Numbered from the stretch's first letter, positions 6,096-30,977 are shown. The stretch is 32,000 nt of DNA from Polynucleobacter sp. (GCA_964203875.1 CAXNNS010000001.1:380244-412243), one strand, 5' to 3'. Translations and numbers: made by a program. The notes: a model not told the origin generated them from the sequence alone.

Positions 6096-6099
6096 CTCT

Positions 6100-7977: not shown

Positions 7978-7986
7978 TGAGATTCT

Positions 7987-8062
7987 TGGTGGCCCGGGGC
8001 GGAATCGAACCACCGACACAAGGATTTTCAATCCTCTGCTCTACCGACTGAGCTACCAGGCC
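7987..8062 (-). tRNA. tRNA-Phe (anticodon GAA), CCA encoded
   Basis: Reverse complement is GGCCTGGTAGCTCAGTCGGTAGAGCAGAGGATTGAAAATCCTTGTGTCGGTGGTTCGATTCCGCCCCGGGCCACCA. It is 76 nt, folds as a cloverleaf, has GAA at positions 34-36, and closely resembles E. coli tRNA-Phe. Confidence 0.95.
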
Positions 8063-8072
8063 AAGAGTTGAA

Positions 8073-8078
8073 ATTATA
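8073..8078 (-). promoter_or_regulatory. possible -10 box (TATAAT) for tRNA-Phe
   Basis: TATAAT on the tRNA strand lies 11-16 nt upstream of the mature 5' end. There is no convincing -35. A similar box sits next to the distal half-tRNA copy (30992-30997). Confidence 0.3.
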
Positions 8079-8202
8079 ACGGAACTGTTTTTGGGCTTGG
8101 AAAATGTCCAAAACTGTGCTCACTCTGCTGAAAACCTTATCAATCCTTGGCTAGCGGGGATGGTAGATCCTGCTTACGGTGTGCGACTGGTAGAGATGTG
8201 GG

Positions 8203-8217
8203 AATCCTCTGCTCTAC
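8203..8217. repeat. third, decayed copy of the tRNA-Phe D-arm/anticodon-stem segment
   Basis: aatcctctgctctac is identical to 8030-8044. Flanks show only faint similarity (gcccagcc... versus ggcctgg...). Confidence 0.5.
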
Positions 8218-8272
8218 GGAGTTTGGCTGGGCTATAGTTTAGCTATATATTCCCCTCAAAAAGGATTTAGTC

Positions 8273-8863
8273 ATGCGCGACGCTGTAGACAACATAATTA
8301 CTCTGATTGGCAACAAAAAAATTGACTGGCTAGCTAAAGAGATGCATGAGCGCATTTGGGCAGAACATACCAAAAATGATTCTTACTATGACTACACAAG
8401 CATTGGAAAAGCCCTATATGGAAGATCAGATAATGAAGCTGAACTAGGTGAAGAGGAAATAAGCTCTGACTGGGTTTGCATAGCCGAAGGATTTGACGGG
8501 GGTGACTTGAGGTTTGATTCCTGCGGCATTCCGCCATACAGACTACAGGATCATATCCTCATGCATGCCGCAAAACTAGACCCGAATGTAATTGTTGGCA
8601 TGGTTTACCAACATGAAAATGATTACTTTGTTGGCGCTAGATATACTGCCTTAAAAGATGGGGCAATTTGTAGTTGCGAAGAAAGACTTGAAACCTATAA
8701 CTATCGAGTTGTAGATGAGGATGAGCTTGAAGACCTAATCGAAGAGCTCAAGGCAGATGAAAGTGATGATGTTGCAATTTCTCGCGATGATTATTGGGCA
8801 TTAAAGCAAGAGCAAAATCAAATTGCTTTGCGCGATCTAAAGGAAACAGTAAATCGCAAATAA
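8273..8863 (+). CDS. hypothetical acidic protein
   Basis: 196-aa ORF with an ATG start and a very acidic C-terminal part (DEDELEDLIEELKADESDDV). I recognise no family. Confidence 0.6.
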   Translation: MRDAVDNIITLIGNKKIDWLAKEMHERIWAEHTKNDSYYDYTSIGKALYGRSDNEAELGEEEISSDWVCIAEGFDGGDLRFDSCGIPPYRLQDHILMHAAKLDPNVIVGMVYQHENDYFVGARYTALKDGAICSCEERLETYNYRVVDEDELEDLIEELKADESDDVAISRDDYWALKQEQNQIALRDLKETVNRK

Positions 8864-8865
8864 TC

Positions 8866-9015
8866 TTATAAGGCTGCCAACTGTTTCTGCCCTGCAGCAA
8901 TCTTCTGTCTAGCTCGCTCAGCTCGAACAGCCTCTTGGGCACGCTTGACCTGTGCTTGCATGGCCTTGATTCGCTGTTGCTCTGGCGTTGGTGTTGTGAC
9001 TTCTGTGATCTTCAT
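8866..9015 (-). CDS. possible 49-aa coiled-coil ORF (below the ORF-track cutoff)
   Basis: Hand translation gives MKITEVTTPTPEQQRIKAMQAQVKRAQEAVRAERARQKIAAGQKQLAAL. Its start overlaps the upstream ORF's stop (TAATG). Confidence 0.25.
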   Translation of the reverse strand: MKITEVTTPTPEQQRIKAMQAQVKRAQEAVRAERARQKIAAGQKQLAAL

Positions 9016-9167
9016 TAGCCATTCCCAATCTGTGTTGGAATACTGATTACATTCGCAGCGCCAAATTGGGCTTGGAGTATTTTTGTGGCGAAGTTGGTGT
9101 TTTCAGCAAATACGATAGTGGTTACAACCATCCCACTTGCTCTAACAGTTGCTCTAAATTGTTTCAT
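9015..9167 (-). CDS. possible 50-aa ORF (below the ORF-track cutoff)
   Basis: Hand translation gives MKQFRATVRASGMVVTTIVFAENTNFATKILQAQFGAANVISIPTQIGNG. No clear Shine-Dalgarno sequence. Lies just downstream of integrase 1 and hairpin copy 1. Confidence 0.25.
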   Translation of the reverse strand: MKQFRATVRASGMVVTTIVFAENTNFATKILQAQFGAANVISIPTQIGNG

Positions 9168-9181
9168 ATAGGTATTTATGG

Positions 9182-9200
9182 GCGTCCAGCAACTAGACGC
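9182..9200. repeat. island palindrome, copy 1 (inverted orientation)
   Basis: gcgtccagcaactagacgc is the exact reverse complement of the copies at 23929 and 25647. The stem is extended by a flanking gg/cc pair. Confidence 0.7.
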
Positions 9201-9207
9201 CCAATTC

Positions 9208-10233
9208 TTAGATTAATACCTTCAAAATTACGTCGCGCTTTTGCTCGAGTGTATAACCTACAGTCCCATACATATTAAATTCACTGCCACCACTGCTATG
9301 CCCTGTAATGCTTTCTGCAAGACGTGTTGGTATGTCATTGCGAGCCTTCATCCTATCAATGATTGCGTGCCTAAACATATGGCTCTTAAAGTCAAATTCC
9401 TTTAATGTTTTTTTAATAATTTGTGAGCAACTTGAATTGCCATTGTCTCTCGCATAATGCGGCACAAACCACTCACTGCTTTTCTTTTTTGCAATCTTAT
9501 AAAGCTCTTTTGCAGCATCTAATGACACACCGCATAGCGGCACGGCTCTAATGCTGGACTTGGTTTTTCTATCACTTAAAGCATTTCGCCTAATCCACAA
9601 GTGCGGAATGTCATGATCTAAGACGCAATCGTCTAGTCTGGCAAACAAGGGCTCGCTTAGTCTAAATCCAGTATTAAGCTGAATTAAGGCAACCAACTTG
9701 TGTGGGGTTGAGTTCTTTAACAAATGCTCTTTTACTTGTTGTATCAACTGGGAGGTAATGATTGGCATTGAACGCTTTGTTTCGCCTTCACCCCTAATTT
9801 TCAATGCTCTAAATGGACTTAGCCTATCTATATCTAAATGTTTAAATGCGACATTGAGCATAGCGTTAAGCGTGTTGTTGTGTTTGCGAATACTGGTAGG
9901 GCTTAAACCCCTATTTAACTGATAGTCGCGATACTCTGTAATGTGCCAATGCTTGAGCTCATCTAAAGTTAAATCCCCAAAGAATTCCTTAAAGCTACGA
10001 AAGTGATAGTTTGCATGTTTAACAAATGTAGGGCGATGAGAGGATTTAGCTTCGTGCATATAAATCTCAAAAGCATCTGTAATTGTGGGTAGCCTGCCAC
10101 TTTTCTGTTTAGCCAAATGTTCGCTAATAACTTTAGCAATGAACTCTTCTTCAAAATTCATGCCATTGATATTTATTAAACGTTCTACTTTGTCAAAGAC
10201 GATTGGGTGAGGTTTTATTACGATTGCTCGCAT
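9208..10233 (-). CDS. tyrosine recombinase / integrase (Int1)
   Basis: 341-aa ORF with catalytic residues in NTGFRLSE (Arg), HMFRHAIID (His-x-x-Arg) and GHSSGG...YGTVGY (His, Tyr). Confidence 0.85.
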   Translation of the reverse strand: MRAIVIKPHPIVFDKVERLININGMNFEEEFIAKVISEHLAKQKSGRLPTITDAFEIYMHEAKSSHRPTFVKHANYHFRSFKEFFGDLTLDELKHWHITEYRDYQLNRGLSPTSIRKHNNTLNAMLNVAFKHLDIDRLSPFRALKIRGEGETKRSMPIITSQLIQQVKEHLLKNSTPHKLVALIQLNTGFRLSEPLFARLDDCVLDHDIPHLWIRRNALSDRKTKSSIRAVPLCGVSLDAAKELYKIAKKKSSEWFVPHYARDNGNSSCSQIIKKTLKEFDFKSHMFRHAIIDRMKARNDIPTRLAESITGHSSGGSEFNMYGTVGYTLEQKRDVILKVLI

Positions 10234-10308
10234 AGTTTTCCTTATTAAAGTAAAGTTGGATTACTGGGCGAATGAGGGATTGTGTATAAAACAATCCCTC
10301 CAACCAAC

Positions 10309-10752
10309 TTACCTCTTAAATCCACTACGCAAACTGCTACTAGCTATTTCAATTTGACTATCTAGTTCGCCAGCTTCAACTGCTTGCTTGATGGCAGAAA
10401 GAGCTTTTACAAGCTCTTCGCCACTGGATACCTCAACACTGGGCTTGCCTTTAGCAAGCTCTATAGTCCAACTACCATATTTAACTGATACGCAGACTTT
10501 GCCTTGTTCAGACTGAAACCACCAAGGCTTAATTCTTTTTGGCACTTCAACTTGTTTTCGCAGACCCGTTTCAGGATCTTTTACGGAGCGATATTTCATA
10601 ACAACAAAGGGCTTGCCATCCATTTGGCTTTGCGCCAAATTTATTTGCTCCCAAAGTTTGCTCGCCAGCTTATTTCTACGGATCACTATTGCAGGCATAT
10701 TGCGCGGCTTTTTAACTGCAACTAACTTCAAACTATTTAATACTGTGCTCAT
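10309..10752 (-). CDS. hypothetical protein
   Basis: 147-aa ORF with an ATG start and a GGAG-like sequence upstream. Basic N-terminus. I recognise no family. Confidence 0.6.
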   Translation of the reverse strand: MSTVLNSLKLVAVKKPRNMPAIVIRRNKLASKLWEQINLAQSQMDGKPFVVMKYRSVKDPETGLRKQVEVPKRIKPWWFQSEQGKVCVSVKYGSWTIELAKGKPSVEVSSGEELVKALSAIKQAVEAGELDSQIEIASSSLRSGFKR

Positions 10753-11126
10753 TTCATTCTCCTATGTAGTTAATGGGCACATTTAGTTTGTTTTCGATCA
10801 CGCATTTTGGTCGACCTCTTTTTAGGTTTATCCACAAAACACCTCATTTTTGCCAAGAAAAATAGGGGTTTTCTTTGTCAGGACTAAATACTTTTGCGAG
10901 TTGCTTGGTTACAAAGTTTGGTCGCAAGAAATAAAAGTAGTTGCGTGAGTTGGTTGCTAAGGAGTTACTGGAGTGGCAAATGAGTAACTCTGACTAGCGA
11001 CTACGTTTGCAACATCTCTTTTGAGATCTGCAACACAACTCCTTGCAACGATCTTTTGATCTCTACTCCTTTGTAACCAGCACAACACGCAACGAGAACT
11101 CAATCTATTTGAACAAGGAGAACGAT

Positions 11127-11576
11127 ATGAGAGAAATAGCAGTTAGAGGTTTTATTAATGAGAAATTCAACACCACCTTTGGCAAGGGTCTATTTAGGCG
11201 GGCTGTCTTTAATGGGTCAGTGGAATTACACAACCCAAATCAGAAATATCTAGTGGATTACTTTTCTTATCTAGAGTGGGAAGCTCAAGCTAAATCAGAT
11301 AAGCAAATTGAAGCAACAATTCAATTAACAAATTCAGGCATTGCTCAAGAAGACGAGATGCTCTTTTCATGGTTAGTGCATTACGACCCATTAACTAAAT
11401 CTAAAGAGCGGGCAGATGGCTATAGCGTGTATTCCCCAAATACACGTGAGTTATTCATAAAAATCGATGATCCCTCAAATCAAACAATTGATGAATGGAC
11501 TTTAAATGTTCACAACTGCAAAGCTACAGGCGCTAATAAGCCCGTGTTTATTGCTGCAAACGTTGATTTAACTTAA
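11127..11576 (+). CDS. hypothetical protein
   Basis: I place the start at the ATG at 11127, which is preceded by AAGGAG. The track's TTG start at 11043 lies within the repeat-rich intergenic region. Confidence 0.55.
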   Translation: MREIAVRGFINEKFNTTFGKGLFRRAVFNGSVELHNPNQKYLVDYFSYLEWEAQAKSDKQIEATIQLTNSGIAQEDEMLFSWLVHYDPLTKSKERADGYSVYSPNTRELFIKIDDPSNQTIDEWTLNVHNCKATGANKPVFIAANVDLT

Positions 11577-11632
11577 CGCATTAACTACCCCCCTCAAAAA
11601 CCGCCTATACGCTACGATCTTGTGACATCACA

Positions 11633-11651
11633 GCGTCTAGTTGCTAGACGC
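11633..11651. repeat. island palindrome, copy 2
   Basis: gcgtctag-ttg-ctagacgc forms a perfect 8-bp stem. Confidence 0.7.
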
Positions 11652-11895
11652 TACGCAAACTGCATACAAGCTGGATTTGAGGGGTTATTTACAGTCTGTC
11701 GTCTAAATCCCACGATCTTCATGGGAACCACGGTTTTAAACACTAAATACTTGTTTGAAAAAGCACCAAAGAAAAGTGCAGTTTTCTTTAAGTCATTGAT
11801 TTATGGAAGATCTTTTTTACTTAAATTTCGGTCGACCTTTTCTACAAAAGAAAACACACTTAAGCATGCTTTTTATTTAAATAAGGAACAACAAA

Positions 11896-12462
11896 ATGGC
11901 TCAAGCAAAAACTCTTACTCAAGCAGAATTAGATCAAGTTCTGCGTTTTGTCTCTACAAAAAAATATGCGCAGCGAGACCGCGCACTGATTCTCACCAGC
12001 TTTTGGTCAGGCATGCGTGTGGGAGAAATAGCCGCACTCAAAATGGGCGATGTAGTTAATGAAGATGGCACGATTAAAAAAGAAATTCGCTTAAGTGCAT
12101 CGCAAACTAAAGGTGGACATGCCAGAACGGTGTTTATTCCAGCCAAGCTACAAACTGAACTACAAATTTACTTGAGTACTCGCCATGCCAAATTACCGCA
12201 CTTGCCATTCTTTCACAGCGCCAATCGCTTAGGCTTTTCTGCTAATAGCCTATGTCAATGGTTCTTTTGGACTTACCGCGCCGCTGGAATTTCGGGAGCA
12301 AGTAGTCACTCTGGCAGAAGATCCTTTCTGACTTCTCTGGCAAACAAAGGAATTGGCGTAAGAATACTGGCCAGCTTGGCAGGGCATAGATCAATAGCCG
12401 TAACGATGAAATATTTAGATGCTAACGATGATATGAAGAGAAACGCCGTAGAGCTTATTTAA
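11896..12462 (+). CDS. minimal tyrosine recombinase, catalytic domain only (Int2)
   Basis: 188-aa ORF with an ATG start and an AAGGAA sequence upstream. Catalytic residues lie in WSGMRVGE, HSGRRSF and LAGHRSIAVTMKYL. It lacks an N-terminal SAM-like or arm-binding domain. Confidence 0.8.
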   Translation: MAQAKTLTQAELDQVLRFVSTKKYAQRDRALILTSFWSGMRVGEIAALKMGDVVNEDGTIKKEIRLSASQTKGGHARTVFIPAKLQTELQIYLSTRHAKLPHLPFFHSANRLGFSANSLCQWFFWTYRAAGISGASSHSGRRSFLTSLANKGIGVRILASLAGHRSIAVTMKYLDANDDMKRNAVELI

Positions 12463-13210
12463 TTGGGGGTTTAATTGATGGGAATATTCCCCTCTCTGCA
12501 TTAGCAATTAAATTCTTAGCCTGAGCAAGATAGCGACTAACTGCAATAGTCATACGCCTTCTCTCAAGCGCGTCATCTATTTGATCCCCGTCAGTAGTTC
12601 TTGCCAACAAATCCAAATCAATTTTTGCTTTTTGACCAATCTCATAATTGCTCAATGTAGGATGCTCATTACGGATTTTCCAAACATTGAGTAGCATCTC
12701 TATGGTTGTCATGCGTATTTTGCTTTTAATAACTTGGCGCTTAGCTGTACTTTGCTCCCAAATATCTACGGGATCTCTACTTTCGTATGCCTTTTGCAAT
12801 GCTTTGCCAATTTGCCGTATTGCTGTCTGCCTACGCAACGTCAAAGGCACCTCAATAATCAATCTATCCTCATGAATACTAAGACGCTCTAATTGACGGC
12901 GCTCATCAACCACCTCAACCTTCTTTAGTTTTTTGCGCTCAGCAAATATTTTTCTGCCTTGACTTGCCCACCACTGGGCAAACGACTTCTTATCCACATC
13001 ACCAAAGTCCTTATAGAGATTTGCCAGCGCTCCTTTGCCTTGATTACGACAGCACAGCACGTATTCATCGCTTGCCTGCAAAGTCAAAAACCACCAATAA
13101 ATCGGTGTTTTCTTAGCCTCTCTAATTTCCTCATTTAACCCTAAGCCACGGCTAAAGCTCCCCCGAATGTGCTTATTAGGCAAAGGTTCGTGTTGGTCTA
13201 TGTCGTCCAT
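12455..13210 (-). CDS. hypothetical protein
   Basis: 251-aa ORF converging on Int2 with an 8-bp overlap. Charged and helical. I recognise no family. Confidence 0.6.
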   Translation of the reverse strand: MDDIDQHEPLPNKHIRGSFSRGLGLNEEIREAKKTPIYWWFLTLQASDEYVLCCRNQGKGALANLYKDFGDVDKKSFAQWWASQGRKIFAERKKLKKVEVVDERRQLERLSIHEDRLIIEVPLTLRRQTAIRQIGKALQKAYESRDPVDIWEQSTAKRQVIKSKIRMTTIEMLLNVWKIRNEHPTLSNYEIGQKAKIDLDLLARTTDGDQIDDALERRRMTIAVSRYLAQAKNLIANAERGIFPSIKPPIK

Positions 13211-13505
13211 TTGTTATCAAGAAAAAGTAATTAATGAATCTTACTACTTTTTACATACAACATTAGTTTCATTCTTTCCATTGATTTAACGATATGTGTT
13301 ATCACAAATTATTGTTATTTGATGTGTAGTTTCCCATTAAATGCAACAAGTCCATAATCCTTTATATCGTGATTCCTATCACCGCTCTTTAACAAACGAC
13401 GAGTTTTAACGCAGTAAGCGCCTTGCGGCGCCAGCAGTAGATTTTTGCTGCAACGCAATCCTGCAATGCAGCATTTTTAACGCCATTACTTATATAGGAG
13501 GACAT

Positions 13506-14315
13506 ATGGCACAAGTAATTACCGCAGTAAAAAACGCCTTTGTACCCAGCGCAGAAAACCTGGCTTTCGCAGGCGGACTGGTAACGCAGTTGGACAGCTT
13601 GGTCACCAAGCGTAAACAGTGGGAAACCACGGATTACAAAAAAGCCAACGAGGGTTTGTATAGCTTGTTAGCAAGCTGTCTTGATGTGTTCAATAGCAAG
13701 TTTGTAGATGCTAGTGACGAAGACAAAAAGACCTTGCGGGCTGAACTCAAGGCTCGCTTGACCGCAGACGGGGTTCGTGTGCAACGCAACACAACGACCT
13801 TGACCATGTTTGTGCGGTTTGTGTTTGGCAGTGATCGTAAGCGTGCACATGGCTACACCTATGTGCTCAAAGCAGCGATTTCTTATGACGTTACTGCGGC
13901 TAACTTGCCAAGCTGGATTGTTGAGCAAGGCGGCATTGAAGAAGTGCGCAAGCGCATGATTGTTTCAGAAGAAGCGCAGCAACGCAAAGCAGACTTGTCA
14001 GTAGCGCAAGCGCAAGTTAAGGCAAGCATTGAACAAGCAGTAGTAACGCCATTGGCAAAGCTACCAATGTCTGGGATTAGCGGGGAATATGCATTGCTTC
14101 TCGCCAAGCCAAATCCTGATGGCCTTGTGTCAATCGTAGGCGTGTTATCGGACATCAATGAAGCGTTTTATAACGCTTGCATCATCAAGATGGCCCGCAT
14201 TAAAGCTGCTGATAACGCACAGACCCTGGCACTAAGCAAAGAAGGTACTGATTTGTTAGCAAGCAAGGCTAGCAACGATGCCTTCATCAATCAACCCTTA
14301 GCAATCGCTGCTTAA
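13506..14315 (+). CDS. hypothetical protein (GC-richer than its neighbours)
   Basis: 269-aa ORF with a strong Shine-Dalgarno sequence (taggaggacatATG). I recognise no family. One 60-nt line inside it counted 50% GC. Confidence 0.65.
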   Translation: MAQVITAVKNAFVPSAENLAFAGGLVTQLDSLVTKRKQWETTDYKKANEGLYSLLASCLDVFNSKFVDASDEDKKTLRAELKARLTADGVRVQRNTTTLTMFVRFVFGSDRKRAHGYTYVLKAAISYDVTAANLPSWIVEQGGIEEVRKRMIVSEEAQQRKADLSVAQAQVKASIEQAVVTPLAKLPMSGISGEYALLLAKPNPDGLVSIVGVLSDINEAFYNACIIKMARIKAADNAQTLALSKEGTDLLASKASNDAFINQPLAIAA

Positions 14316-14372
14316 AGCACTCAACGGGGGCTTAGCCCTCGTTGTTGCCCCTCTTTTTAAGAAAGGAAATAT

Positions 14373-15062
14373 ATGAAAGTAGTTGAAAAATATCGGCCTA
14401 CTAATTTAGGCGAAGTAATTTACCCCAATGAGGCTGTAAGAACTCGCATTCAAGCATATATGTCTGGTCAGCTGGAAGGAAACCTTTTACTTTGGGGCCC
14501 AAACGGTACAGGCAAAACTAGTGTTGCAGACTTATTGCCTGCTTATATCGGCGGCAAAAGCGCTCAAGTTGATACTGACTTTAATGCAATTTTGAAACAC
14601 AAGGACTTAATGTCTTACCTAGGCAATAGTTGTCAGTTTGCCAGTTTGTGCGAGCAAAAGAAGCACTTTATGGTATTTCATGAGTTTGATAATGCAGAAG
14701 CAAATGTTCATGAGCTTTGGACAGCGATGGACAAGTATGCAAAAGACCTCATGGTGATCATTACTACTAATGATCCTATGCGAGTACACCCAAGTCTACG
14801 GTCGCGCTGTGATGAAATTCGCTTTCCTGCATTAAAAGCTAATCAAGTTTTACCGCGCTTTCAGAAGCTTCTTGCTGCCGAAGGTGTTCAAGTTCCCGAT
14901 CAACAAGCTTTGCACTACTTAAAGCAAATTGAGCATACGCCCGATTTGAGAAAGTATTTTGCTAAAGCAGATGAGCTAATTTACTTACAGAAGATGGGGG
15001 TTGCATTTCCAGCCGCACCTTCGGTTTCATTCAAACCTCAAGTTCGTTTCACAGTTGTTTAA
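14373..15062 (+). CDS. truncated RFC/clamp-loader-like AAA+ ATPase
   Basis: 229-aa ORF with an RFC box VEKYRPTNLGEV, Walker A LLLWGPNGTGKTS and an SRC motif SLRSRCDEIRF. Walker B is atypical (VFHEFDN). It lacks the C-terminal collar domain. Confidence 0.7.
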   Translation: MKVVEKYRPTNLGEVIYPNEAVRTRIQAYMSGQLEGNLLLWGPNGTGKTSVADLLPAYIGGKSAQVDTDFNAILKHKDLMSYLGNSCQFASLCEQKKHFMVFHEFDNAEANVHELWTAMDKYAKDLMVIITTNDPMRVHPSLRSRCDEIRFPALKANQVLPRFQKLLAAEGVQVPDQQALHYLKQIEHTPDLRKYFAKADELIYLQKMGVAFPAAPSVSFKPQVRFTVV

Positions 15063-15069
15063 CTAACTC

Positions 15070-15098
15070 ATCAAGCGTCTAGGCTCTAGACGCTTGAT
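15070..15098. repeat. island palindrome, copy 3 (long-stem variant)
   Basis: atcaagcgtctag-gct-ctagacgcttgat forms a 13-bp perfect stem 8 nt after the stop codon of the ATPase gene. Confidence 0.65.
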
Positions 15099-15132
15099 AA
15101 ATCCTCACACTTAATCATTGAAAGGCAACATC

Positions 15133-15447: not shown

Positions 15448-15469
15448 TTCAGCTTTGAAAGAAAAAGTC

Positions 15470-17011: not shown

Positions 17012-17016
17012 GTTCG

Positions 17017-17035
17017 GCGTCTAGTTACTGGACGC
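17017..17035. repeat. island palindrome, copy 4
   Basis: gcgtctagttactggacgc has one loop substitution relative to the consensus. It lies 6 nt upstream of the Int3 start. Confidence 0.7.
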
Positions 17036-17438: not shown

Positions 17439-17441
17439 AAA

Positions 17442-18872: not shown

Positions 18873-18883
18873 TACCCAAAAGG

Positions 18884-23854: not shown

Positions 23855-23928
23855 ATTTGGCTATTTTGTCAATTTAAGTATTCCATTAGATTACCATGCG
23901 ACCTTATCAAATTACCCTTTACTTACAA

Positions 23929-23947
23929 GCGTCTAGTTGCTGGACGC
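23929..23947. repeat. island palindrome, copy 5 (consensus)
   Basis: gcgtctagttgctggacgc sits in the divergent region between the Type ISP gene and the 24049 gene. Confidence 0.7.
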
Positions 23948-24048
23948 TCATACAAAATTAGCAATTTATTCAACATTTTTTAACAGGCTCACTTAATGAG
24001 CCTATAACCCTCTAATCTCCTTCTCAAGACCACATTTAGGAGATAGTC

Positions 24049-24363
24049 ATGAAATACCTACTCACCATATTTCTGCTTGCCCAAGCAGCCCTATACGCAC
24101 AAAAGAGCTTTGCTCAAGTTACTAATTTAGATAACTCGCCCTACAACATGCAAAACAGCCAATACAACATGGATAACTCACCCTACAACATGCGCAATAG
24201 TCCATACAACATGGATAACAGCGCATATAACGCCAGCGCCAAGAATGGGGTTTATGACAACTCAGGCAATCGAGTCGGCTATGAAGTTAAGGCGCCCAGT
24301 GGCGTAACCAACTACTTTGACAACTCAGGCAATCGAATTGGCTACACACCCTGGAAGAGATAG
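24049..24363 (+). CDS. secreted Asn/Tyr-rich repeat protein
   Basis: 104-aa ORF with a signal peptide (MKYLLTIFLLAQAALYAQKSFAQ) and an AGGAG sequence upstream. It has five heptad repeats (x-NSPYNM), encoded by 5 x 21 bp at 24130-24234, plus a duplicated DNSGNR(V/I)GY motif. Confidence 0.65.
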   Translation: MKYLLTIFLLAQAALYAQKSFAQVTNLDNSPYNMQNSQYNMDNSPYNMRNSPYNMDNSAYNASAKNGVYDNSGNRVGYEVKAPSGVTNYFDNSGNRIGYTPWKR

Positions 24364-24367
24364 CGAC

Positions 24368-24616
24368 ATGCTTTTTAGCGCAATCATTCTTAGTTTTGTG
24401 ATGCCTATGCAAGTTTCTATGGGCAATCCTAAATTTGAGCCCTTCATTGTTAAAGCAACAGTCGACGCAGCCGTTCTTATTGGCCTTCCATCTTCGAAAG
24501 CAGCAAGGAAATATGCCCTACAAGCGCAAAAGCCTGAATTCTTAATGGTAGAAGCGCTTTTGGTATCAGAACCCGTTAACTGGAGAAGGCTGTACTTTAG
24601 AAAGCTTTTCTCTTGA
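24368..24616 (+). CDS. possible small hypothetical protein
   Basis: 82-aa ORF from the ATG at 24368. No clear Shine-Dalgarno sequence and weak coding evidence. Confidence 0.3.
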   Translation: MLFSAIILSFVMPMQVSMGNPKFEPFIVKATVDAAVLIGLPSSKAARKYALQAQKPEFLMVEALLVSEPVNWRRLYFRKLFS

Positions 24617-24677
24617 TAGGCTCATTTTGTGAGCCAGTACAGTAACATTCAAGCATCTAAGTTAAAAGGAAGCCGCC

Positions 24678-25646
24678 ATGGGTGATGTGGAGCGCTTACA
24701 CAAAATTAAGTACATGATTCAGGCACGTCAATGCGTTCCGCTGAATGACTTTCTCAATGAACTCGAAATATCAAAAGCGACATTCAAAAGAGATCTTGAA
24801 TATCTACGAAGCAGAATGAATGCCTCCATTGTTTACGACCGATTCAAGGGTGGTTATTGCTTTGATGGACAAGTCGTTGGCGAAAAGATTGAGTTACCTG
24901 GTTTATGGTTTTCCGAAAAAGAAGCTACTGCACTAGTTCTCATGCAACACCTTCTATCAGGCTTAGATAAGGGGGGCTTAATTGAACCCCACATTGCTCC
25001 GCTTACCTCAATCATTGATGGCATTCTTGGACAGAGCAATACGCCAGCCAAAGAGCTACGCAAAAGACTAAAAGTATTTGGGATGTCTGCCCGTAAAGGT
25101 TCTATTGAGAACTTCGAGGAAATAGGAAGCGCACTACTAAAGCGCAACCGATTACAAATTACATACTATGCCCGCGGCACCAATGAAACTACTGAGCGTG
25201 AAACATCACCTCAACGGCTAATCTTTTATAGAGACAACTGGTACTTAGATGCTTACTGCCATTTGCGAAAAGACTTAAGAAGCTTTGCTCTTGATGGCAT
25301 CAGCAAAGCAATGATTACGAATACAAAGTCAGAAGAGATTTCTGAAAAACAATTGCATGAACACTTTGCTGAAAGTTATGGAATTTTCTCAGGCAAAGCG
25401 AATCAAAGGGCTAAGCTAAAGTTCTCTCCCGAGAAAGCAAGATGGGTAAGTAGTGAAACATGGCATGGTCAACAAGTGGGCACTTTCGATAAAAAAGGCA
25501 ATTACCTTTTGGAGTTTGATTACAACCAAGATCCTGAGCTTGTCATGGATATATTGAAATATGGGTCGGGGGTTGAGGTTTTAGCGCCAGCTAGCTTACG
25601 CAAGTGCGTTAAAGATGAGCTTGCCAATGCATTGGGTAATTATTGA
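24678..25646 (+). CDS. WYL-domain transcriptional regulator (BrxR/CapW-like architecture)
   Basis: 322-aa ORF with an N-terminal wHTH (ISKATFKRDLEYLRS), a central WYL domain (FYRDNWYLDAYCH) and a C-terminal extension. AAGGAAG lies upstream of the ATG. Confidence 0.85.
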   Translation: MGDVERLHKIKYMIQARQCVPLNDFLNELEISKATFKRDLEYLRSRMNASIVYDRFKGGYCFDGQVVGEKIELPGLWFSEKEATALVLMQHLLSGLDKGGLIEPHIAPLTSIIDGILGQSNTPAKELRKRLKVFGMSARKGSIENFEEIGSALLKRNRLQITYYARGTNETTERETSPQRLIFYRDNWYLDAYCHLRKDLRSFALDGISKAMITNTKSEEISEKQLHEHFAESYGIFSGKANQRAKLKFSPEKARWVSSETWHGQQVGTFDKKGNYLLEFDYNQDPELVMDILKYGSGVEVLAPASLRKCVKDELANALGNY

Positions 25647-25665
25647 GCGTCTAGTTGCTGGACGC
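25647..25665. repeat. island palindrome, copy 6 (consensus)
   Basis: gcgtctagttgctggacgc starts on the base after the WYL gene's stop codon. Confidence 0.7.
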
Positions 25666-25700
25666 TAAATACTTATTACGAGATGGAATTAGAATAAATC

Positions 25701-26405
25701 ATGCCTATCTCCATAGATATTAATTTTGACTTTAGGTCAGATACTCCGCCAGGAAAGGATCCCGATAGCTATAGCTCAACACTTCGCTCTTACCATCGGC
25801 GCCTTTGGAGCAAACCTCTGCCTAATGGCAAGCCGTTTGAGCTAATTGACTCCAAAGAAGGGGCTTATCTTTATCACCACTCTGAGTTAGGTGAATTTTT
25901 CTTATCCAGTGACTCTGCAATACACAGCTTCAGCAAGTGGGCAAGCATGGCTCACATCATTAGCCAATTTAGGAATGGTGAGGTTGAGGCATTTAAATCT
26001 CTTGGATATACGATCGGCGGCATGATAATTTTTCCAGGAAACCGAATAGATGGGAAGGCGACTATCAATGGGGCTAGAGGTTTTCATCCTCTAATAAGGG
26101 ATCGAATTGACCTAACCCTGGAATGCATAAGATGCCATTACAAAAATGAAAGCAGCCCACTTGAAGATACGCTGTCACGCTATAGTGATTTCTTCGCCCT
26201 GTTTGATAGCTTCAAGGGGTATGTGGACTTCTTCTTATTGAATGACTTAGTGAGTAAAGACTATTCAGAGATTGGGTTTTTCATGCCTTTTGAGAATTTT
26301 AAAACTCCTGCCGTTCCCAAAACTTTTGACTCCTACTGCGGCTACAAAGACTTAGCCATGAGCTTTGTTAATAAAAGAAATCAGCGCATTCTTTCATCCA
26401 TATAG
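25701..26405 (+). CDS. hypothetical 234-aa protein downstream of the WYL regulator
   Basis: Clean ATG ORF 54 nt after the WYL gene on the same strand. No signal peptide or transmembrane segment. I see no catalytic motif I can name. Confidence 0.7.
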   Translation: MPISIDINFDFRSDTPPGKDPDSYSSTLRSYHRRLWSKPLPNGKPFELIDSKEGAYLYHHSELGEFFLSSDSAIHSFSKWASMAHIISQFRNGEVEAFKSLGYTIGGMIIFPGNRIDGKATINGARGFHPLIRDRIDLTLECIRCHYKNESSPLEDTLSRYSDFFALFDSFKGYVDFFLLNDLVSKDYSEIGFFMPFENFKTPAVPKTFDSYCGYKDLAMSFVNKRNQRILSSI

Positions 26406-26471
26406 TCTCTAAGGCTCATTTTATGAGCCCTTGATAGTGGATTATTTAGATCATTAATAGGGAGAAATTCT

Positions 26472-26756
26472 ATGAAAGTTTCCGCCTGGATTCTTTGCTT
26501 GTTTGCATTACCTGCCTTTGCTCAATCAGACTACCATGCCAATCGCTACTCTGGACGAGCCACAGAAATAACTCCAAGCAATCAAGCTGGCTTTAATACA
26601 GTCAATGGATATTTCTACAATTCAAAAACTAATACCTACTACAAAGGCAAAAACATCAATCGTGATGCAGGCGCGCAACCAAGCCCTCAAGGAAGCCTAG
26701 CGTTTACCTATGATCGCAATCGGTATGCGCCAACCAACCTCAGCATTCAACATTAA
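26472..26756 (+). CDS. small secreted Asn/Tyr-rich protein
   Basis: 94-aa ORF with a signal peptide (MKVSAWILCLFALPAFAQ) and a GGGAGA sequence upstream. Confidence 0.6.
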   Translation: MKVSAWILCLFALPAFAQSDYHANRYSGRATEITPSNQAGFNTVNGYFYNSKTNTYYKGKNINRDAGAQPSPQGSLAFTYDRNRYAPTNLSIQH

Positions 26757-26789
26757 TTCTTGTTCCATCTGGAACAGACAATAACTAAT

Positions 26790-26820
26790 CCTCTATCTAT
26801 CGAGAGCTAATAGATAGAGG
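26790..26820. terminator. bidirectional terminator hairpin between convergent genes
   Basis: cctctatctat-cgagagcta-atagatagagg forms an 11-bp perfect stem between 26472..26756 (+) and 26840..27229 (-). Confidence 0.55.
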
Positions 26821-26839
26821 TGCTTTAGGTTAATAGTCT

Positions 26840-27229
26840 TTATTGGTGATATCTATATTCCTGAGTTTTGCCACCATAGCCATAGGCCGTCGCTCGTACA
26901 TTTGCCACATATACATAGCTTTCCTCATGTAAGTTCCCTAGTATTTTCTCAAATCCTGCAAAGGCTTCTTTGATGTATTGAGCTTTTTCATCTTTGGTAT
27001 TGGTTTCATCCGTAACCTTGATATCAAAGTAAAAGCTGTTTTTATTCTGCTCACTTAATAACTTACCGCCAACGATCCAGCAGTCCCTATCTATATAGTC
27101 AATCGCAATAGCAGTAACTTCTCGTTTCTTGTTCAAGATTCGCGTTGTTATGTCTAAGAGCAAATCAGTAACCTGCTTAGTAGTTTCAACACTCTTTGTT
27201 CCGCTTATCTTTACATTCAATATGGGCAT
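26840..27229 (-). CDS. tautomerase-superfamily protein (long, about 128-aa form)
   Basis: 129-aa ORF beginning MPILNVKISG, which gives the catalytic Pro1 after Met removal. Length and pattern fit the tautomerase family. Confidence 0.65.
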   Translation of the reverse strand: MPILNVKISGTKSVETTKQVTDLLLDITTRILNKKREVTAIAIDYIDRDCWIVGGKLLSEQNKNSFYFDIKVTDETNTKDEKAQYIKEAFAGFEKILGNLHEESYVYVANVRATAYGYGGKTQEYRYHQ

Positions 27230-27242
27230 TTGTTTCTCCTAA

Positions 27243-27261
27243 TTAGTTAGCTATACAACTA
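27243..27261. promoter_or_regulatory. putative MarR operator copy upstream of the tautomerase gene
   Basis: ttagttagctatacaacta is near-identical to the box at 27717-27736. It contains the half-sites TTAGTT/AACTA. Confidence 0.45.
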
Positions 27262-27283
27262 TTAATTCAAAAAAATAGGGGCA

Positions 27284-27697
27284 CTACAAAATCTCACTAA
27301 TTCCCCTTAACTTACCTACGACATCTAAAAACTCATCTGAGCCCAAGAGCCTCTTAAACTTCTTGGTGACTTCTCCGCTGGCCGCATTCAAACCATCTTT
27401 CATGGCCTTTGCCTTTCTTGTGGGATGAACTTCAATCTCACGAGCATCGTCAGGCGATGACCTTCTTTCAATTAGCCCTAGCTTCTCAAGTCCATCCAAT
27501 CCTCTAGAGGCTGTAGGTTTAGTGATATTCATTTCCTTTGCCAAAGCATTTTGATAGGACTGTGGCTTTTCCAATATCACTCTCAACATGAATGCCTGTG
27601 ATGGCGTCAAACCAAATGGCTTAAACGCTATAGTCCATTCCCGCTCTAGCTTACGAGCCAATGAAGTGGTATTGAAATAGAGGCATTGTTCAAACAT
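27284..27697 (-). CDS. MarR-family transcriptional regulator
   Basis: 137-aa ORF with a winged HTH (LAKEMNITKPTASRGLDGLEKLGLIERR). Confidence 0.85.
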   Translation of the reverse strand: MFEQCLYFNTTSLARKLEREWTIAFKPFGLTPSQAFMLRVILEKPQSYQNALAKEMNITKPTASRGLDGLEKLGLIERRSSPDDAREIEVHPTRKAKAMKDGLNAASGEVTKKFKRLLGSDEFLDVVGKLRGISEIL

Positions 27698-27716
27698 AGG
27701 CTCACTTTAACATGTT

Positions 27717-27736
27717 TTAGTTAGCTATGCAACTAA
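27717..27736. promoter_or_regulatory. putative MarR operator upstream of the MarR gene
   Basis: ttagttagctatgcaactaa is a palindrome (TTAGTT-N8-AACTAA) 20 nt upstream of the MarR start. Confidence 0.5.
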
Positions 27737-27818
27737 TACTAAGAATTTATTCCATTTGGAACAAGCTTGCTACTAATCACTAAACCTGGGAAGATTCTAG
27801 TAATTAAAAGGAATCTAA

Positions 27819-28019
27819 ATGGAAATGGTTCGAGTTGTGTCTAGTGCAATGGATGCCGTGGGCTACGATAAAGATAAACAACGACTGTTTATTACGTTCA
27901 AGCAGGGTGATACCTATACTTTTTGCAGAGTTCCCGAAAGTATTCACCAAGGTCTAATGACTGCTGGTTCCAAAGGCAGTTATTACGATAACTTTATAAA
28001 AGATAAGTTTGACTGCTAA
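27819..28019 (+). CDS. KTSC-domain protein
   Basis: 66-aa ORF. VSSAMDAVGYDKDKQRLFITFKQGDTYTFCRVPESIHQGLMTAGSKGSYYDNFIK matches the KTSC domain pattern. Confidence 0.75.
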   Translation: MEMVRVVSSAMDAVGYDKDKQRLFITFKQGDTYTFCRVPESIHQGLMTAGSKGSYYDNFIKDKFDC

Positions 28020-28047
28020 TTAACTCAAACATGAAATAGGTTAAAAA

Positions 28048-28218
28048 ATGCTCTACGCTTTCGTCCTTTGGCTCATTCTTATTGGTGGAGGTCATTTGCT
28101 TGTAAGGCTAGAAAATGCTCCGGATCAAATCAAAGATTTAGCCGGCTGGCTTATTGGGGCGGGCTATATTGGCGCAGTAATATCCATTCCCCTATTTGCA
28201 ATCAGCTCAGGACGCTAA
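28048..28218 (+). CDS. possible 56-aa two-helix membrane peptide (below the ORF-track cutoff)
   Basis: Hand translation gives MLYAFVLWLILIGGGHLLVRLENAPDQIKDLAGWLIGAGYIGAVISIPLFAISSGR. The Shine-Dalgarno sequence is weak. Confidence 0.3.
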   Translation: MLYAFVLWLILIGGGHLLVRLENAPDQIKDLAGWLIGAGYIGAVISIPLFAISSGR

Positions 28219-28250
28219 TCTCTATCTATCCAACCCCGTTGAATCAAGGC

Positions 28251-28439
28251 ATGAAGACTGAAGATATTGGAACGATTTGCCCAGCTTGCGGAAGGGCTAA
28301 TGACTGCCAAATAGCTGGTGAGAAGAAGTGTTGGTGTTTTGATGTACCTGTAAACAAGGAGAAACTCGAGCAAGCACTTAAGGACAAGTCAAAAGATCAA
28401 TGCTTGTGCAAGGATTGCCTGAAGAAGTTAAGCGTCTAA
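28251..28439 (+). CDS. cysteine-rich CWC-type small protein
   Basis: I prefer the internal ATG at 28251 (MKTEDIGTICPACGRANDCQIAGEKKCWCFD...CLCKDCL). The N-terminal part of the 123-aa track ORF overlaps the membrane-peptide frame and looks non-coding. Confidence 0.6.
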   Translation: MKTEDIGTICPACGRANDCQIAGEKKCWCFDVPVNKEKLEQALKDKSKDQCLCKDCLKKLSV

Positions 28440-28454
28440 TTACGCGACGCTTAA
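28428..28454. repeat. island palindrome, copy 7 (divergent variant)
   Basis: ttaagcgtc-taattacgc-gacgcttaa shares the GCGTC/GACGC core and overlaps the stop codon of the CWC gene. Confidence 0.35.
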
Positions 28455-28463
28455 TAAGCAATA

Positions 28464-28691
28464 TCAACCCTTGGGTGGATGTGGATCTTTTCCATAACTA
28501 TTTCTACGTGTAATGCGCCCCTTGTCATCATGAATCAACAATTCACTTTTTTGATTAATGGCAATCTCCCTAGCCACTTTTGATGCTTCGGTCTGTGTGC
28601 GATGTAGTGATGTTGCCTTTGTATTTCCTTCGCCCTTTACCGCCCACCCATTTTCGGCTTTAACAACATGTTGGTTTTTTCCAGCCATCAT
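28464..28691 (-). CDS. DUF2188-family small protein
   Basis: HVVKAENGWAVKGEGNTKATSLHRTQTEA fits the DUF2188 pattern. I place the start at the tandem ATG ATG preceded by AGGGGGG (28691/28688). Confidence 0.7.
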   Translation of the reverse strand: MMAGKNQHVVKAENGWAVKGEGNTKATSLHRTQTEASKVAREIAINQKSELLIHDDKGRITRRNSYGKDPHPPKG

Positions 28692-28853
28692 CACCCCCCT
28701 TTGCCCATTCAAATCAAAAAATCACTGTAATTTCATACAGCATTAATTAACATAAAATTTACTTGGTTTACTTAAAAACTCTTATATGTTACATTCAAAT
28801 TCAATTTTTTGCAGAAAAACTGCGTAAATTACAATTTAATTAGATGAAAAGAC

Positions 28854-30155
28854 ATGTTAATAGAATTTAGCGTAGCAAATTTCAAATCTATTCTTGAACG
28901 CCAAACCCTGAGCATGGTGGCCAGCGCAGACTCTGAACATGCTGAAAAAAATGTAATCGAACTCCCCGGCGAAACAATTAAATATCTGAAATCGGCGGTT
29001 GTTTACGGACCAAATGCTGCGGGCAAGAGCAACCTCTTAAAGGCCATGCTTGTATTACAACAACTTATCCTTCATTCCGCCTCCTCCCAAGAAGGCATTC
29101 CAATGATTGGCATTACACCTTTTCTACTGGATGGGAATATTCCAGACGAGCCTTCTGAATTCAACATCATCTTCATAGCAAACGATGGCGTGAAATATGA
29201 ATATCATTTTTCTGCAACACCAAAAGCGGTTGAAAAAGAGTGGATGGTTGCCTATCCGAATGGCAGGCCGCAGCGTTGGTTTGAGCGCGAACTAAATAAA
29301 ACAACCGGCAAATACGAGTGGTGGTTTGGCTCGAAGTTTAAAGGCGAAAAGGCAGAGAGAAAAGTTTGGCAAGACTTCACCAGAAATAATTCTTTGTTTT
29401 TTTCTACCGCAGTTCAGCTAAACAACGAACAACTTAAAACTCCTTTTGGGTGGATAGCCAATCAACTTATTGTCATAACATCGGGTATTGACCTTAACCC
29501 ATGGCTCAGCATTAATCTTATTAAGAATAATGAAGGCCATAAAATTCTTGATTACTTGCAAGCCGCTGATATTGGAATTGACGGGATTGATATTAAAGAA
29601 GAGGATTTGCCCCCTCAAGCCCATTTCATAGGCGGCAATCCTTTTATGCAGGCGATTGGCGCAATGAACTTCAACCATGGCGCACCTGAAGATGCTGCGG
29701 GACAAAAACCAAAAATGATTAGGGTTACAACTACGCACAAAAATACAGAAACCAATGAGGTGGTTCAGTTAAGCATTGAGGATGAATCCGAAGGCACTAG
29801 AAAGCTATTTAATCTAACTGGCGGCTGGATTAGATCGCTTGATATTGGAGCAACCTTATTGGTGGATGAACTTGAAAGAAGTCTTCATCCAAAGATAACC
29901 CGATTTTTAGTTGAGCTTTTTCATAGTAATAAAAATCAAAGCAATGCTCAATTAATTTTTACAACGCACGATACAAATCTTTTGGACACCTCTTTATTGA
30001 GAAGAGATCAAATTTGGTTTGTCGAGAAAAACAATGGCAAGGCAACACATCTTTATTCCTTGCTCGATTACAACCCGCGCAAAGAAGAGGCTTTGGAGCG
30101 AGGATACCTAAAAGGCAGGTATGGGGCAGTTCCTGTTGTGGGGGAAATTAATTAA
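28854..30155 (+). CDS. AAA_15/AAA_21-type ATPase (AbiLi/RloA-like)
   Basis: 433-aa ORF with Walker A GPNAAGKSN, Walker B LLVDELERSLHP and FTTHDTNLLD. It has the ABC/OLD-like ATPase architecture. Confidence 0.85.
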   Translation: MLIEFSVANFKSILERQTLSMVASADSEHAEKNVIELPGETIKYLKSAVVYGPNAAGKSNLLKAMLVLQQLILHSASSQEGIPMIGITPFLLDGNIPDEPSEFNIIFIANDGVKYEYHFSATPKAVEKEWMVAYPNGRPQRWFERELNKTTGKYEWWFGSKFKGEKAERKVWQDFTRNNSLFFSTAVQLNNEQLKTPFGWIANQLIVITSGIDLNPWLSINLIKNNEGHKILDYLQAADIGIDGIDIKEEDLPPQAHFIGGNPFMQAIGAMNFNHGAPEDAAGQKPKMIRVTTTHKNTETNEVVQLSIEDESEGTRKLFNLTGGWIRSLDIGATLLVDELERSLHPKITRFLVELFHSNKNQSNAQLIFTTHDTNLLDTSLLRRDQIWFVEKNNGKATHLYSLLDYNPRKEEALERGYLKGRYGAVPVVGEIN

Positions 30156-30799
30156 TGCCATCTCGTAGGCTATCAACACTAAGAAGCGAAAGATCGTTTT
30201 CTAGAAAGGCTGGAAAGACTCCACCTAAAGAGGTAACCTTGATTGTTTGCGAGGGCGAAACAGAGACTAAATATCTAAAAACTCTTTGTCAAACCCTTAG
30301 ACTTACTACCGCCAGCATATATGTTTGTGATAACGGCACCGATTCTGCTCCAATTAATTTGGTGAACAGAGCAGAAAGGCTCAATCTAACCAACGATGGC
30401 TACGACCATATTTATTGCGTGTTTGATAAAGATGTTCATGAAAGTTTCAACAGGGCCAGAGAAAGAATACAAGCCTTAAACAAACGCAGCAGAAAACCCC
30501 TTCCTATTAAAGAGGCTATTAGCATCCCATCATTTGAGCTATGGATATTGCTCCACTATGAACAAACCGATCGCTCATTTAATAACTCTGCCGAGGTGGT
30601 TAGATATATTACAAATCAAAATCACATACGAGCTTATAAAAAAGCTGATGATTCAATTTGTCAGGAACTAGTCGAGAAACTTGAAACCGCGATTGCTAAT
30701 GCTGTTTGGCTTGAAAAACGCGGTCACACTAAAAATGAAAATCCGATGACGAATGTTCACAAACTTGTAGAACACATAAAAGAAATTTCTATTAAATAA
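30155..30799 (+). CDS. RloB-like (TOPRIM-like) protein (AbiLii-like)
   Basis: 214-aa ORF whose start overlaps the ATPase stop codon (TAATG). Motifs are LIVCEGETETKYL, YCVFDKDVH and PSFELWILLHY. Confidence 0.8.
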   Translation: MPSRRLSTLRSERSFSRKAGKTPPKEVTLIVCEGETETKYLKTLCQTLRLTTASIYVCDNGTDSAPINLVNRAERLNLTNDGYDHIYCVFDKDVHESFNRARERIQALNKRSRKPLPIKEAISIPSFELWILLHYEQTDRSFNNSAEVVRYITNQNHIRAYKKADDSICQELVEKLETAIANAVWLEKRGHTKNENPMTNVHKLVEHIKEISIK

Positions 30800-30939
30800 T
30801 CCATCCAACACGACGCTGCGGATGCCACTTGGGAAATATTCGAAACCGCTCGGAGCCAATAGATTCGGTGCTTGTAGGGCGGTGGGTCGCAACCAGCTTA
30901 GAGCTTATGTACAAAGGACTGTTAGTCCTCTATCCTAGC

Positions 30940-30977
30940 TTTTCAATCCTCTGCTCTACCGACTGAGCTACCAGGCC
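30940..30977 (-). repeat. orphan 5' half of tRNA-Phe (nt 1-38): distal island boundary (att-like direct repeat)
   Basis: ttttcaatcctctgctctaccgactgagctaccaggcc is identical over 38 bp to 8025-8062. Identity stops inside the anticodon loop. Confidence 0.9.

Follow-up and report, generated by a model that had tools for sequence, protein, structure and literature searches.

The tRNA-Phe locus and its repeat

Polynucleobacter is a genus of freshwater Betaproteobacteria. This report concerns a 32,000-nt stretch of a Polynucleobacter sp. assembly (GCA_964203875.1, CAXNNS010000001.1:380244–412243), hereafter the window, in which a 22.9-kb genomic island lies on the 5′ side of a tRNA-Phe gene; positions are counted from the first letter of the window. 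ARAGORN found a single tRNA gene in the window, tRNA-Phe(GAA) at 7987–8062 on the minus strand, which is intact, is 100% identical to the tRNA-Phe of Polynucleobacter tropicus and other Polynucleobacter, and is directly followed on the same strand by an intrinsic terminator (7956–7978; terminator scan).

A repeat search of the window returned a 39-nt exact direct repeat at 8025–8063 and 30940–30978 (both on the minus strand), representing nucleotides (nt) 1–38 of tRNA-Phe plus one base upstream (−1). A short-word blastn search of the tRNA against the window likewise aligned 30977–30940 with nt 1–38 at 100%. Read on the tRNA strand, the last base of the block is A38, which places its end at the 3′ edge of the anticodon loop; this is the inner edge of the copy within the tRNA gene. 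Exact 39-mer pairs are expected by chance in 32 kb at a rate of ~1e-15 (~5e8 position pairs × 4^−39). A preliminary description of the window, made from the sequence alone, had equated 8025–8062 and 30940–30977 with nt 1–38; these coordinates are right and the identity runs one base further.

The island therefore has an intact tRNA-Phe gene at one end and a 5′ half-gene in the same orientation at the other, the latter being, on our reading, the displaced native 5′ half. The two attachment (att) site copies are 100% identical to each other, so the insertion is recent or maintained. This is a configuration recognised by the Islander algorithm for islands in tRNA genes (tDNAs): the intact gene and its cognate fragment (nt 1–38, 30940–30977) both lie on the minus strand, the 5′ fragment is upstream of the tDNA, 22.9 kb away on the tRNA strand, and the interval, of a length within the allowed 2–200 kb, contains integrases. 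These are three tyrosine recombinases, all assigned to PF00589 by Pfam, as the preliminary description had proposed: Int1 (341 amino acids (aa); 9208–10233, minus strand), Int2 (188 aa, catalytic domain only; 11896–12462, plus strand) and Int3 (404 aa; 15797–17011, minus strand). No relaxase, type IV secretion system or virion gene of an integrative and conjugative element or prophage was found in any open reading frame (ORF) of ≥80 aa (Pfam, PHROGs). The gene ycaO, which flanks tRNA-Phe in P. tropicus, was searched for in the window and is not present.

A family of related elements

Searches with Int3 gave many homologues at 72–96% identity, and all four that were looked up (P0124, P0220, P0196 and P0125, at 77–91% identity) lie 5′ of a co-oriented tRNA-Phe gene. 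The corresponding elements, L075/76, L077/78, L079 and L080 respectively (the stretch for L080 is cut within the tRNA-Phe 5′ half), share core genes with the window at 51–91% identity, and none of them has Int1. From tblastn searches with the core proteins we obtained a conserved family layout, running att, cargo where present, Int3, Int2, DUF6641, Int1, two small ORFs and att, in which Int3, DUF6641, Int1 and the small ORFs read in that direction.

This layout recurs at several targets. In addition to the 5′-type elements at tRNA-Phe (the window, L075–L080), there are 5′-type elements at tRNA-Met (L007, L038), 3′-type elements at tRNA-Arg (L005, and likewise L006, in which the full tRNA-Arg lies beyond the stretch examined) and a 3′-type element at tRNA-Phe (L008, with a 45-nt repeat of nt 32–76). 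All four groups have the att core upstream of int3 and a co-oriented tRNA gene; judged from the sequences, only the attP arm holding the tRNA sequence past the loop differs between groups.

Int1 of the window shares 88–96% identity with integrases from Polynucleobacter. A profile scan of a genome collection with an Int1 alignment gave 70 loci, 11 of which have an Int1-like gene 84–770 bp upstream of a co-oriented tRNA-Met or tRNA-Asn gene. Ten of these 11 show a direct repeat of the tRNA 5′ part upstream of the integrase gene, and in eight the block ends at position 38 or 39 (the tRNA-Met elements L007 and L038 and six of the eight tRNA-Asn elements, e.g. L021, L034 and L035), close to or at the nt 38 edge found in the window and in L077. 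The opposite arrangement, with the full tRNA gene at the far end and a 3′ fragment (nt 33–77) just downstream of the integrase gene, was seen at tRNA-Arg in L005 and at tRNA-Met in L045; L006 and L065 are of the same 3′-fragment type, with the full tRNA-Arg outside the stretch examined. The predicted crossover in the anticodon loop is a habit of the family, in which both 5′- and 3′-restoring types occur.

Element arms and chromosomal flank

Between the tRNA gene and the first ORF lies the element-borne P arm (8064 to approximately 8260, minus strand), which is conserved in the elements of L075, L077 and L079 and aligns with that of L075 over 75 nt at 84% identity, a score reached by none of 500 shuffles. 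It contains a −10 box (TATAAT, 8078→8073), a ~110-bp homologue of the native tRNA-Phe upstream sequence and a pseudo-anticodon hairpin. The −10 box stands at a fixed distance in the P arms of different elements, as TATAAT, TAAAAT or TACAAT. The hairpin, GTAGAGCAGAGGATTCCCACATCTCTAC at 8190–8217, mimics the D-stem/anticodon-stem part of the tRNA, copies nt 19–33 and closes into a pseudo-anticodon stem; it too is conserved in L075, L077 and L079, and could be an extra recombinase-binding site. Because the conserved hairpin contains nt 19–33, the repeat search also returned a third, partial copy at 8203–8217. We considered this copy as the decayed att site of a tandem insertion and rejected the idea, because the P arms of all three relatives share the conserved motif.

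At the other end, the element-borne P′ arm (30805–30939, minus strand) forms the inner end of the island beside the displaced half-tRNA. It is conserved in L077, from Polynucleobacter sp. HIN10 (128 nt at 79%), and in the metagenome contig L074 (124 nt at 78%), with none of 500 shuffles reaching the score in either comparison. Homology of the P′ arm with the tRNA-Met elements L038 and L007 was dropped from consideration, local and semi-global scores being no better than those of shuffles. In cargo-free relatives the Int3 gene lies ~200 bp from the P′ arm and reads away from the att site; in the window, 13.7 kb of defence cargo stands between the P′ arm and int3.

Beyond the distal repeat lies a chromosomal flank (30979–31165, minus strand) with the native −10 box (30997→30992), 14 nt before the tRNA +1; the box in the P arm is 10 nt before +1. 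The preliminary description had noted both the TATAAT upstream of each tRNA 5′ end and a similarity between the two flanks beyond the repeats. Both boxes are perfect, and the flanks are alike over a best local alignment of 23 nt at 87%, a score that one of 500 shuffles reaches. The first ~25 nt of the distal flank are common to the chromosomal flanks of L074, HIN10 and a second strain, HIN9. It stops, at an approximate end point, in half a terminator that is interrupted by an insertion sequence (IS) of the IS3 family; the motif AAAAAAGCCACT in this flank matches the terminator of L074. The IS3-family element, at 31166–32000 with its orfB at 31213–31995, seemingly sits inside the terminator upstream of the native tRNA-Phe promoter, its boundaries being approximate.

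The proximal flank has a different affinity. Positions 8063–8104 are 92–95% identical to the native tRNA-Phe upstream flank in P. tropicus (L001; 92%) and in strain AM-25C3 (L008). In P. tropicus ycaO is directly upstream of tRNA-Phe, and in AM-25C3 the order is ycaO, a 5′ fragment (nt 1–33), 4 kb without an integrase, and tRNA-Phe.

Empty and occupied sites

Two complete genomes provide an occupied and an empty site for a sister element. In HIN10 (AP028142.1), the order is response regulator, autotransporter, 5′ fragment nt 1–38 (3748–3785), a 12.8-kb element, tRNA-Phe (16561–16636), a 162-aa gene and MAPEG. In Polynucleobacter sp. HIN9 (L081; AP028140.1), the autotransporter is followed by 91 bp, an intact tRNA-Phe (12453–12528), the 162-aa gene and MAPEG, with no island. 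On alignment, the upstream flank of HIN9 is identical to the distal flank of HIN10 up to tRNA nt 38, and the match between HIN9 and the proximal copy of HIN10 starts at −27 and covers the gene to its 3′ end as well as the downstream flank. Further upstream than −27, the proximal sequence in HIN10 is that of the element's P arm; element and native copies are near-identical up to that point. In HIN10, the native promoter and 5′ half have been displaced, and the element arm supplies the 5′ part and promoter.

The conserved P and P′ arms allow this result to be transferred to the window, for which the same displacement is supported, the empty site being that of a related element and not of the window's own lineage. 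The preliminary description had proposed just such a search for an empty site, and within that scope its inference that the island-borne copy supplies a replacement promoter and 5′ half is supported. A scan of metagenomes for the distal junction of the window gave one contig (L074), which is also occupied.

Integration model

We consider it very likely that 8064–30939 is one integrative genomic island of this Polynucleobacter family, inserted 5′ of tRNA-Phe and bringing along a promoter and the 5′ half of the gene. In the proposed mechanism, the circular attP would consist of the P arm (the −10 element and the native-like copy of the tRNA-Phe upstream sequence), tRNA-Phe nt 1–38 and the ~135-bp P′ arm. 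A tyrosine integrase would recombine attP with the chromosomal tRNA-Phe inside the anticodon loop; the native promoter and 5′ half would be pushed 22.9 kb upstream (30940–30978 plus flank), and the working gene would be a hybrid of element promoter, element nt 1–38 and native nt 39–76. The geometry of site-specific recombination places 8064 onward inside the island and 30979 onward outside it. Since the proximal flank is nearer to the native flanks of P. tropicus and AM-25C3, the element must have captured its arm from another lineage; given that the arms are conserved in relatives and given the HIN9/HIN10 comparison, the simplest reading is that the P arm derives from a Polynucleobacter tRNA-Phe upstream region, captured as a copy.

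Several findings weigh against this account. A consensus scan on the tRNA strand found no full −35/−10 promoter at either copy, so the promoter is called from the −10 box and the conservation of its position, and TATAAT would drive transcription of the tRNA. The outer flank of the window matches relatives over only ~25 nt before running, further right, into the IS3 element, and the native promoters of P. tropicus and AM-25C3 are more similar to the element-borne promoter than to the distal flank of the window. No empty site was obtained for the genome of the window, whose 284-aa flank protein, Int1 and 187-aa peroxiredoxin had no exact record match, and a scan of viral contigs for the core–P′ junction expected of an excised circle gave no matches. 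The window's copy may still be able to excise.

It is also conceivable, if improbable, that the 5′-side design acts as a reciprocal promoter swap that reports the state of the element. In the circle, the captured tRNA promoter would read through the core and the P′ arm toward int3. After integration, the element promoter would drive the tRNA, and the strong native promoter stranded on the half-gene would read into the P′ arm and, in cargo-free relatives such as L038, straight into int3, ~200 bp downstream. The P-arm hairpin (8190–8217) would then be an extra integrase-binding or decoy site, and Int3 and the optional Int1, which flank attP, could act together on two half-sites.

Alternative explanations

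As to which recombinase acts at the tRNA-Phe att site, Int1 was assumed at first, on the grounds of its position and the 11 loci at which its relatives adjoin a tRNA gene. It reads toward the att site from 1.1 kb away, and an Int1-family gene lies just upstream of a co-oriented tRNA gene at all 11 loci, 10 of them with the 5′-half repeat upstream of the integrase gene. In L034 and L035 an Int1-like gene is the only gene between the repeats of 1.6-kb elements at tRNA-Asn, and L045 combines an Int1-like gene and a 3′-half repeat with no detectable Int3 homologue. That more distant Int1-like recombinases alone go with 5′-half repeats counts against our assignment, and Int1 may act or co-act. If Int1 acted on the 38-bp core, the mode of integration would be the same and Int3 would have another role. 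We nevertheless downgraded this possibility and regard it as unlikely. No close tRNA-Phe relative with the same arms has Int1: the window aligns with these relatives across the core except at 9178–10317, which marks Int1 as an inserted optional module (~1.1 kb, between DUF6641 and the small ORFs). Copies of Int1 that are 86–98% identical occur among nine close Polynucleobacter elements that target Phe, Met and Arg (70–75% to the more distant L010). The Int1 genes of L001 and L008 lie in the interior, in inverted orientation and not near any att site. Nor do the arms vary together with Int1: they show no detectable conservation between the window and the tRNA-Met element L038, whose Int1 is 90% identical. 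Int3, in contrast, is 88–98% identical within a tRNA-target group and 36–61% between groups. Because the Int3 sequence and the att arms track the tRNA target, and Int1 does not and is absent from the tRNA-Phe relatives, we favour Int3 as the probable integrase for this site, with some reserve; Int1, the recombinase nearest the tRNA, is probably not the enzyme acting here.

The remaining alternatives concern the island as a whole. Two or more elements might have accreted in tandem on the 5′ side with loss of the internal att site, making the defence region at 17.0–30.8 kb an older, separate island. Tandem and remnant structures are common at tRNA-Phe, as witnessed by the integrase-less 4-kb 5′-side remnant in L008, a decayed full-length tRNA-Phe copy inside the L079 island and arrays of 3′ fragments downstream of tRNA-Phe. 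Yet blastn found no internal tRNA-Phe fragment longer than 14 nt within 8218–30939, the family P′ arm stands at the outer end of the cargo, and the cargo of relatives, with modules partly in common, likewise occupies the slot from the P′ arm to int3, all of which makes tandem accretion rather improbable. The identity of 8063–8104 (92–95%) to the tRNA-Phe upstream flank adjoining ycaO, a core gene, in P. tropicus and AM-25C3 could be taken to mean that our assignment is reversed, with 8064 onward holding the native promoter and the distal half-gene and its flank being foreign. We think this very improbable: the sequence from 8064 to ~8260 is found, hairpin included, as a conserved inner arm in four elements, with element genes coming next, the first 25 nt of the distal flank match the chromosomal flank of L074, L077 and the empty HIN9 site, and the HIN9/HIN10 comparison directly shows which side is native. 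That the repeat arose by chance or segmental duplication, with no site-specific recombination, has nothing in its favour beyond the bare existence of the repeat and can be practically discounted in view of the ~1e-15 chance expectation, the conserved arms, the empty and occupied sites in sister strains and the block end at anticodon-loop position 38, as in independent tRNA-Phe, tRNA-Met and tRNA-Asn elements. One integrative island inserted 5′ of tRNA-Phe thus remains our preferred explanation.

Comparison with known systems

Zhao and Williams (2002, J Bacteriol 184:859) reportedly described 5′-side tDNA islands, in a paper whose title speaks of reversed target-gene orientation, and Williams (2002) is said to have classified integrase sublocations, including an anticodon-loop class. 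The island in the window resembles the 5′-fragment tDNA islands catalogued in Islander/TIGER in lying upstream of the restored tRNA gene, with the 5′ fragment at its far end and the element having to supply the 5′ part and promoter. It differs in that the integrase gene of the family adjoins the displaced fragment and not the intact gene, and, set against the reversed target of that title, in that the integrase gene has one orientation to the tRNA throughout, both where the 5′ half is restored (Phe, Met) and where the 3′ half is (Arg, Phe). Like the sites of anticodon-loop integrases, the block in the window ends inside a 7-nt loop flanked by the symmetric anticodon stem; unlike typical members, whose attP runs from the loop to the 3′ end, it has an attP that runs from the 5′ end to the loop and adds upstream promoter sequence.

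Islander lists 159 of 3,919 tDNA islands with a 5′ fragment as against 3,760 with a 3′ fragment, uses the 5′-fragment-upstream configuration as a filter, and counts 2,083 islands with anticodon-centred sites (PMC4383910); the 5′-fragment class has elsewhere been called 'considerably less frequent' (PMC6563490). The preliminary description had called the integration mode unusual, which is fair in that it is rare (about 4%), but with 159 such islands in Islander the mode is already catalogued and described.

In the account that PMC8371274 gives of Cossu et al. (2017), the pTN3-like integrases of Thermococcales use a tRNA 5′ half as attB and the restored gene uses an element-borne promoter, both as proposed for the window. 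The archaeal integrases are 'suicidal', insertion splitting their own gene, and transcription of the tRNA depends on the integrase promoter; in the window the integrase genes are intact and the arm holds a copy of a tRNA-type upstream region.

The presence of several tyrosine recombinase genes in one element also recalls recombinase in trio (RIT) elements and GInts, mobile elements with three contiguous, co-oriented tyrosine recombinase genes. The recombinases of the window lie 1.7 and 3.3 kb apart on different strands with other genes between them, Int1 is optional and Int2 is only a 188-aa catalytic domain. As in defence islands with variable cargo, a Type ISP restriction–modification (R-M) system, AbiL and a WYL-regulated module are present and R-M systems swap between fixed flanks, which is the expected pattern.

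The island in the window opens no new kind of mechanism. Together with HIN9 and HIN10, it offers a clean comparative bacterial example of the rare 5′-side integration into a tRNA gene, with both arms defined and with complete genomes for the empty and occupied sites. The half that is restored can change within one integrase family (5′ for Phe and Met, 3′ for Arg and Phe) without a change in the layout of integrase gene and att site. Because the restored half varies within the Int3 family at an unchanged layout, the comparison suggests that the 3′ bias of tRNA islands stems from the promoter that an element would otherwise have to carry, and not from a limit set by the recombination reaction. 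Island-finding software that looks for the integrase beside the intact tRNA, or for 3′ fragments only, would misplace the borders of this island. Moreover, in an abundant freshwater bacterium, the family repeatedly carries anti-phage systems. A limited literature search found no published account of it.

Gene content and cargo

Beside the P arm, a variable slot holds a 196-aa ORF (8273–8863, plus strand) without a family match, in whose place relatives hold other ORFs. The two small ORFs that follow (49 and 50 aa; 8866–9167, minus strand) are conserved in all relatives, with homologues in L001, L002, L075, L077 and L079–L080, and are candidate directionality or regulatory factors. Past Int1 lie the conserved core genes (10309–15805), found in the same order in L004–L007, L038 and L075–L080 (Pfam, PHROGs, NCBIfam): DUF6641 (10309–10752), a 177-aa protein, Int2, proteins of 251 and 269 aa, a clamp-loader-like AAA+ ATPase (14373–15062) and proteins of 109 and 126 aa. 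Beyond the ATPase, searches of NCBIfam, PHROGs and Pfam yielded no function for these genes. The preliminary description saw a mosaic in the three recombinases; they are no sign of one, since Int3 and Int2 belong to the family core and Int1 is an optional insert.

A ~20-nt palindrome, GCGTCTAGTTGCTGGACGC, recurs with variants at gene ends across the island (9182–9200, 11632–11653, 15074–15095, 17016–17037, 23928–23949, 25646–25667 and 28431–28452) and is also seen in L074 and L079; it may be a repetitive extragenic palindrome (REP)-like element or a shared terminator.

The cargo slot (17442–30799; Pfam, PADLOC), filled differently at the same position in relatives, begins with a PIF1/RecD-like helicase (17442–18872) and a 1,656-aa Type ISP/IIG R-M enzyme (18884–23854; PADLOC, 2289 bits). 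A small, secreted-looking 104-aa repeat protein follows (24049–24363), built on 21-nt tandem repeats (NSPYNM units) and conserved beside WYL in L075 and L080. The WYL regulator itself (24678–25646) precedes DUF6994 (25701–26405), a tautomerase with MarR (26840–27697), a DUF2188 protein and AbiLi/AbiLii (28854–30799). The island thus carries at least three defence-type modules, as had been anticipated: Type ISP/IIG R-M, AbiLi/AbiLii, and WYL plus DUF6994 with the PIF1/RecD-like helicase. Modules are partly common within the slot, with the 104-aa protein and WYL shared by L075 and L080 and the MarR–tautomerase pair by L079.

Restriction systems have been swapped between constant flanks, formed by int3 and, opposite it, by the 104-aa gene and WYL: the PIF1-like helicase and Type ISP enzyme stand there in the window (17442–23854), and an SNF2 helicase, DUF4391, an N6_N4 methylase and a ResIII endonuclease in L075/L080 (1061–9941). 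In the cargo of the L079 island, a decayed near-full-length tRNA-Phe pseudogene (2740–2800) lies between a tautomerase gene and a sensor kinase gene.

Other observations at tRNA genes

In L008, tRNA-Phe is occupied on both sides, by a 3′-type island (repeat of nt 32–76) and a 5′-type remnant (nt 1–33), the relevant positions being 137–181, 13820–13895 and 17935–17967; L031 (9538–12352) has a similar double occupancy at tRNA-Asn. On the short contig L009 (1–3600), an Int3-like gene upstream of tRNA-Phe is transcribed away from the tRNA; this third layout would be consistent with an element that is truly inverted.

The smallest elements, of 1.6–2.2 kb, have a single Int1-like gene between a tRNA-Asn 5′ half and an intact tRNA-Asn (L021, L034, L035 and L057; e.g. 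L034 9508–11173), and come from metagenome-assembled genomes of Comamonadaceae and other Burkholderiales. In L034 and L057 an Int3-like integrase comes directly after such a single-gene element, on the 3′ side.

Downstream of tRNA-Phe, the window holds an array of one- or two-gene units without an integrase (2519–7038), each ending in a fragment of the tRNA-Phe 3′ end (nt 51/55–76; 2528–2541, 5592–5606, 6053–6078 and 7002–7023) and a hairpin terminator. The array looks as if tiny elements, mobilised in trans, had integrated repeatedly at the T-loop/3′ end. L075 (18278–21037) and L076 (9440–12199) have arrays of this kind with other genes (SBP_bac_11, HXXEE, PBP_like_2/TOBE, BrnT), and the cassette array of the window also includes an IS30-family transposase gene (3278–4231).

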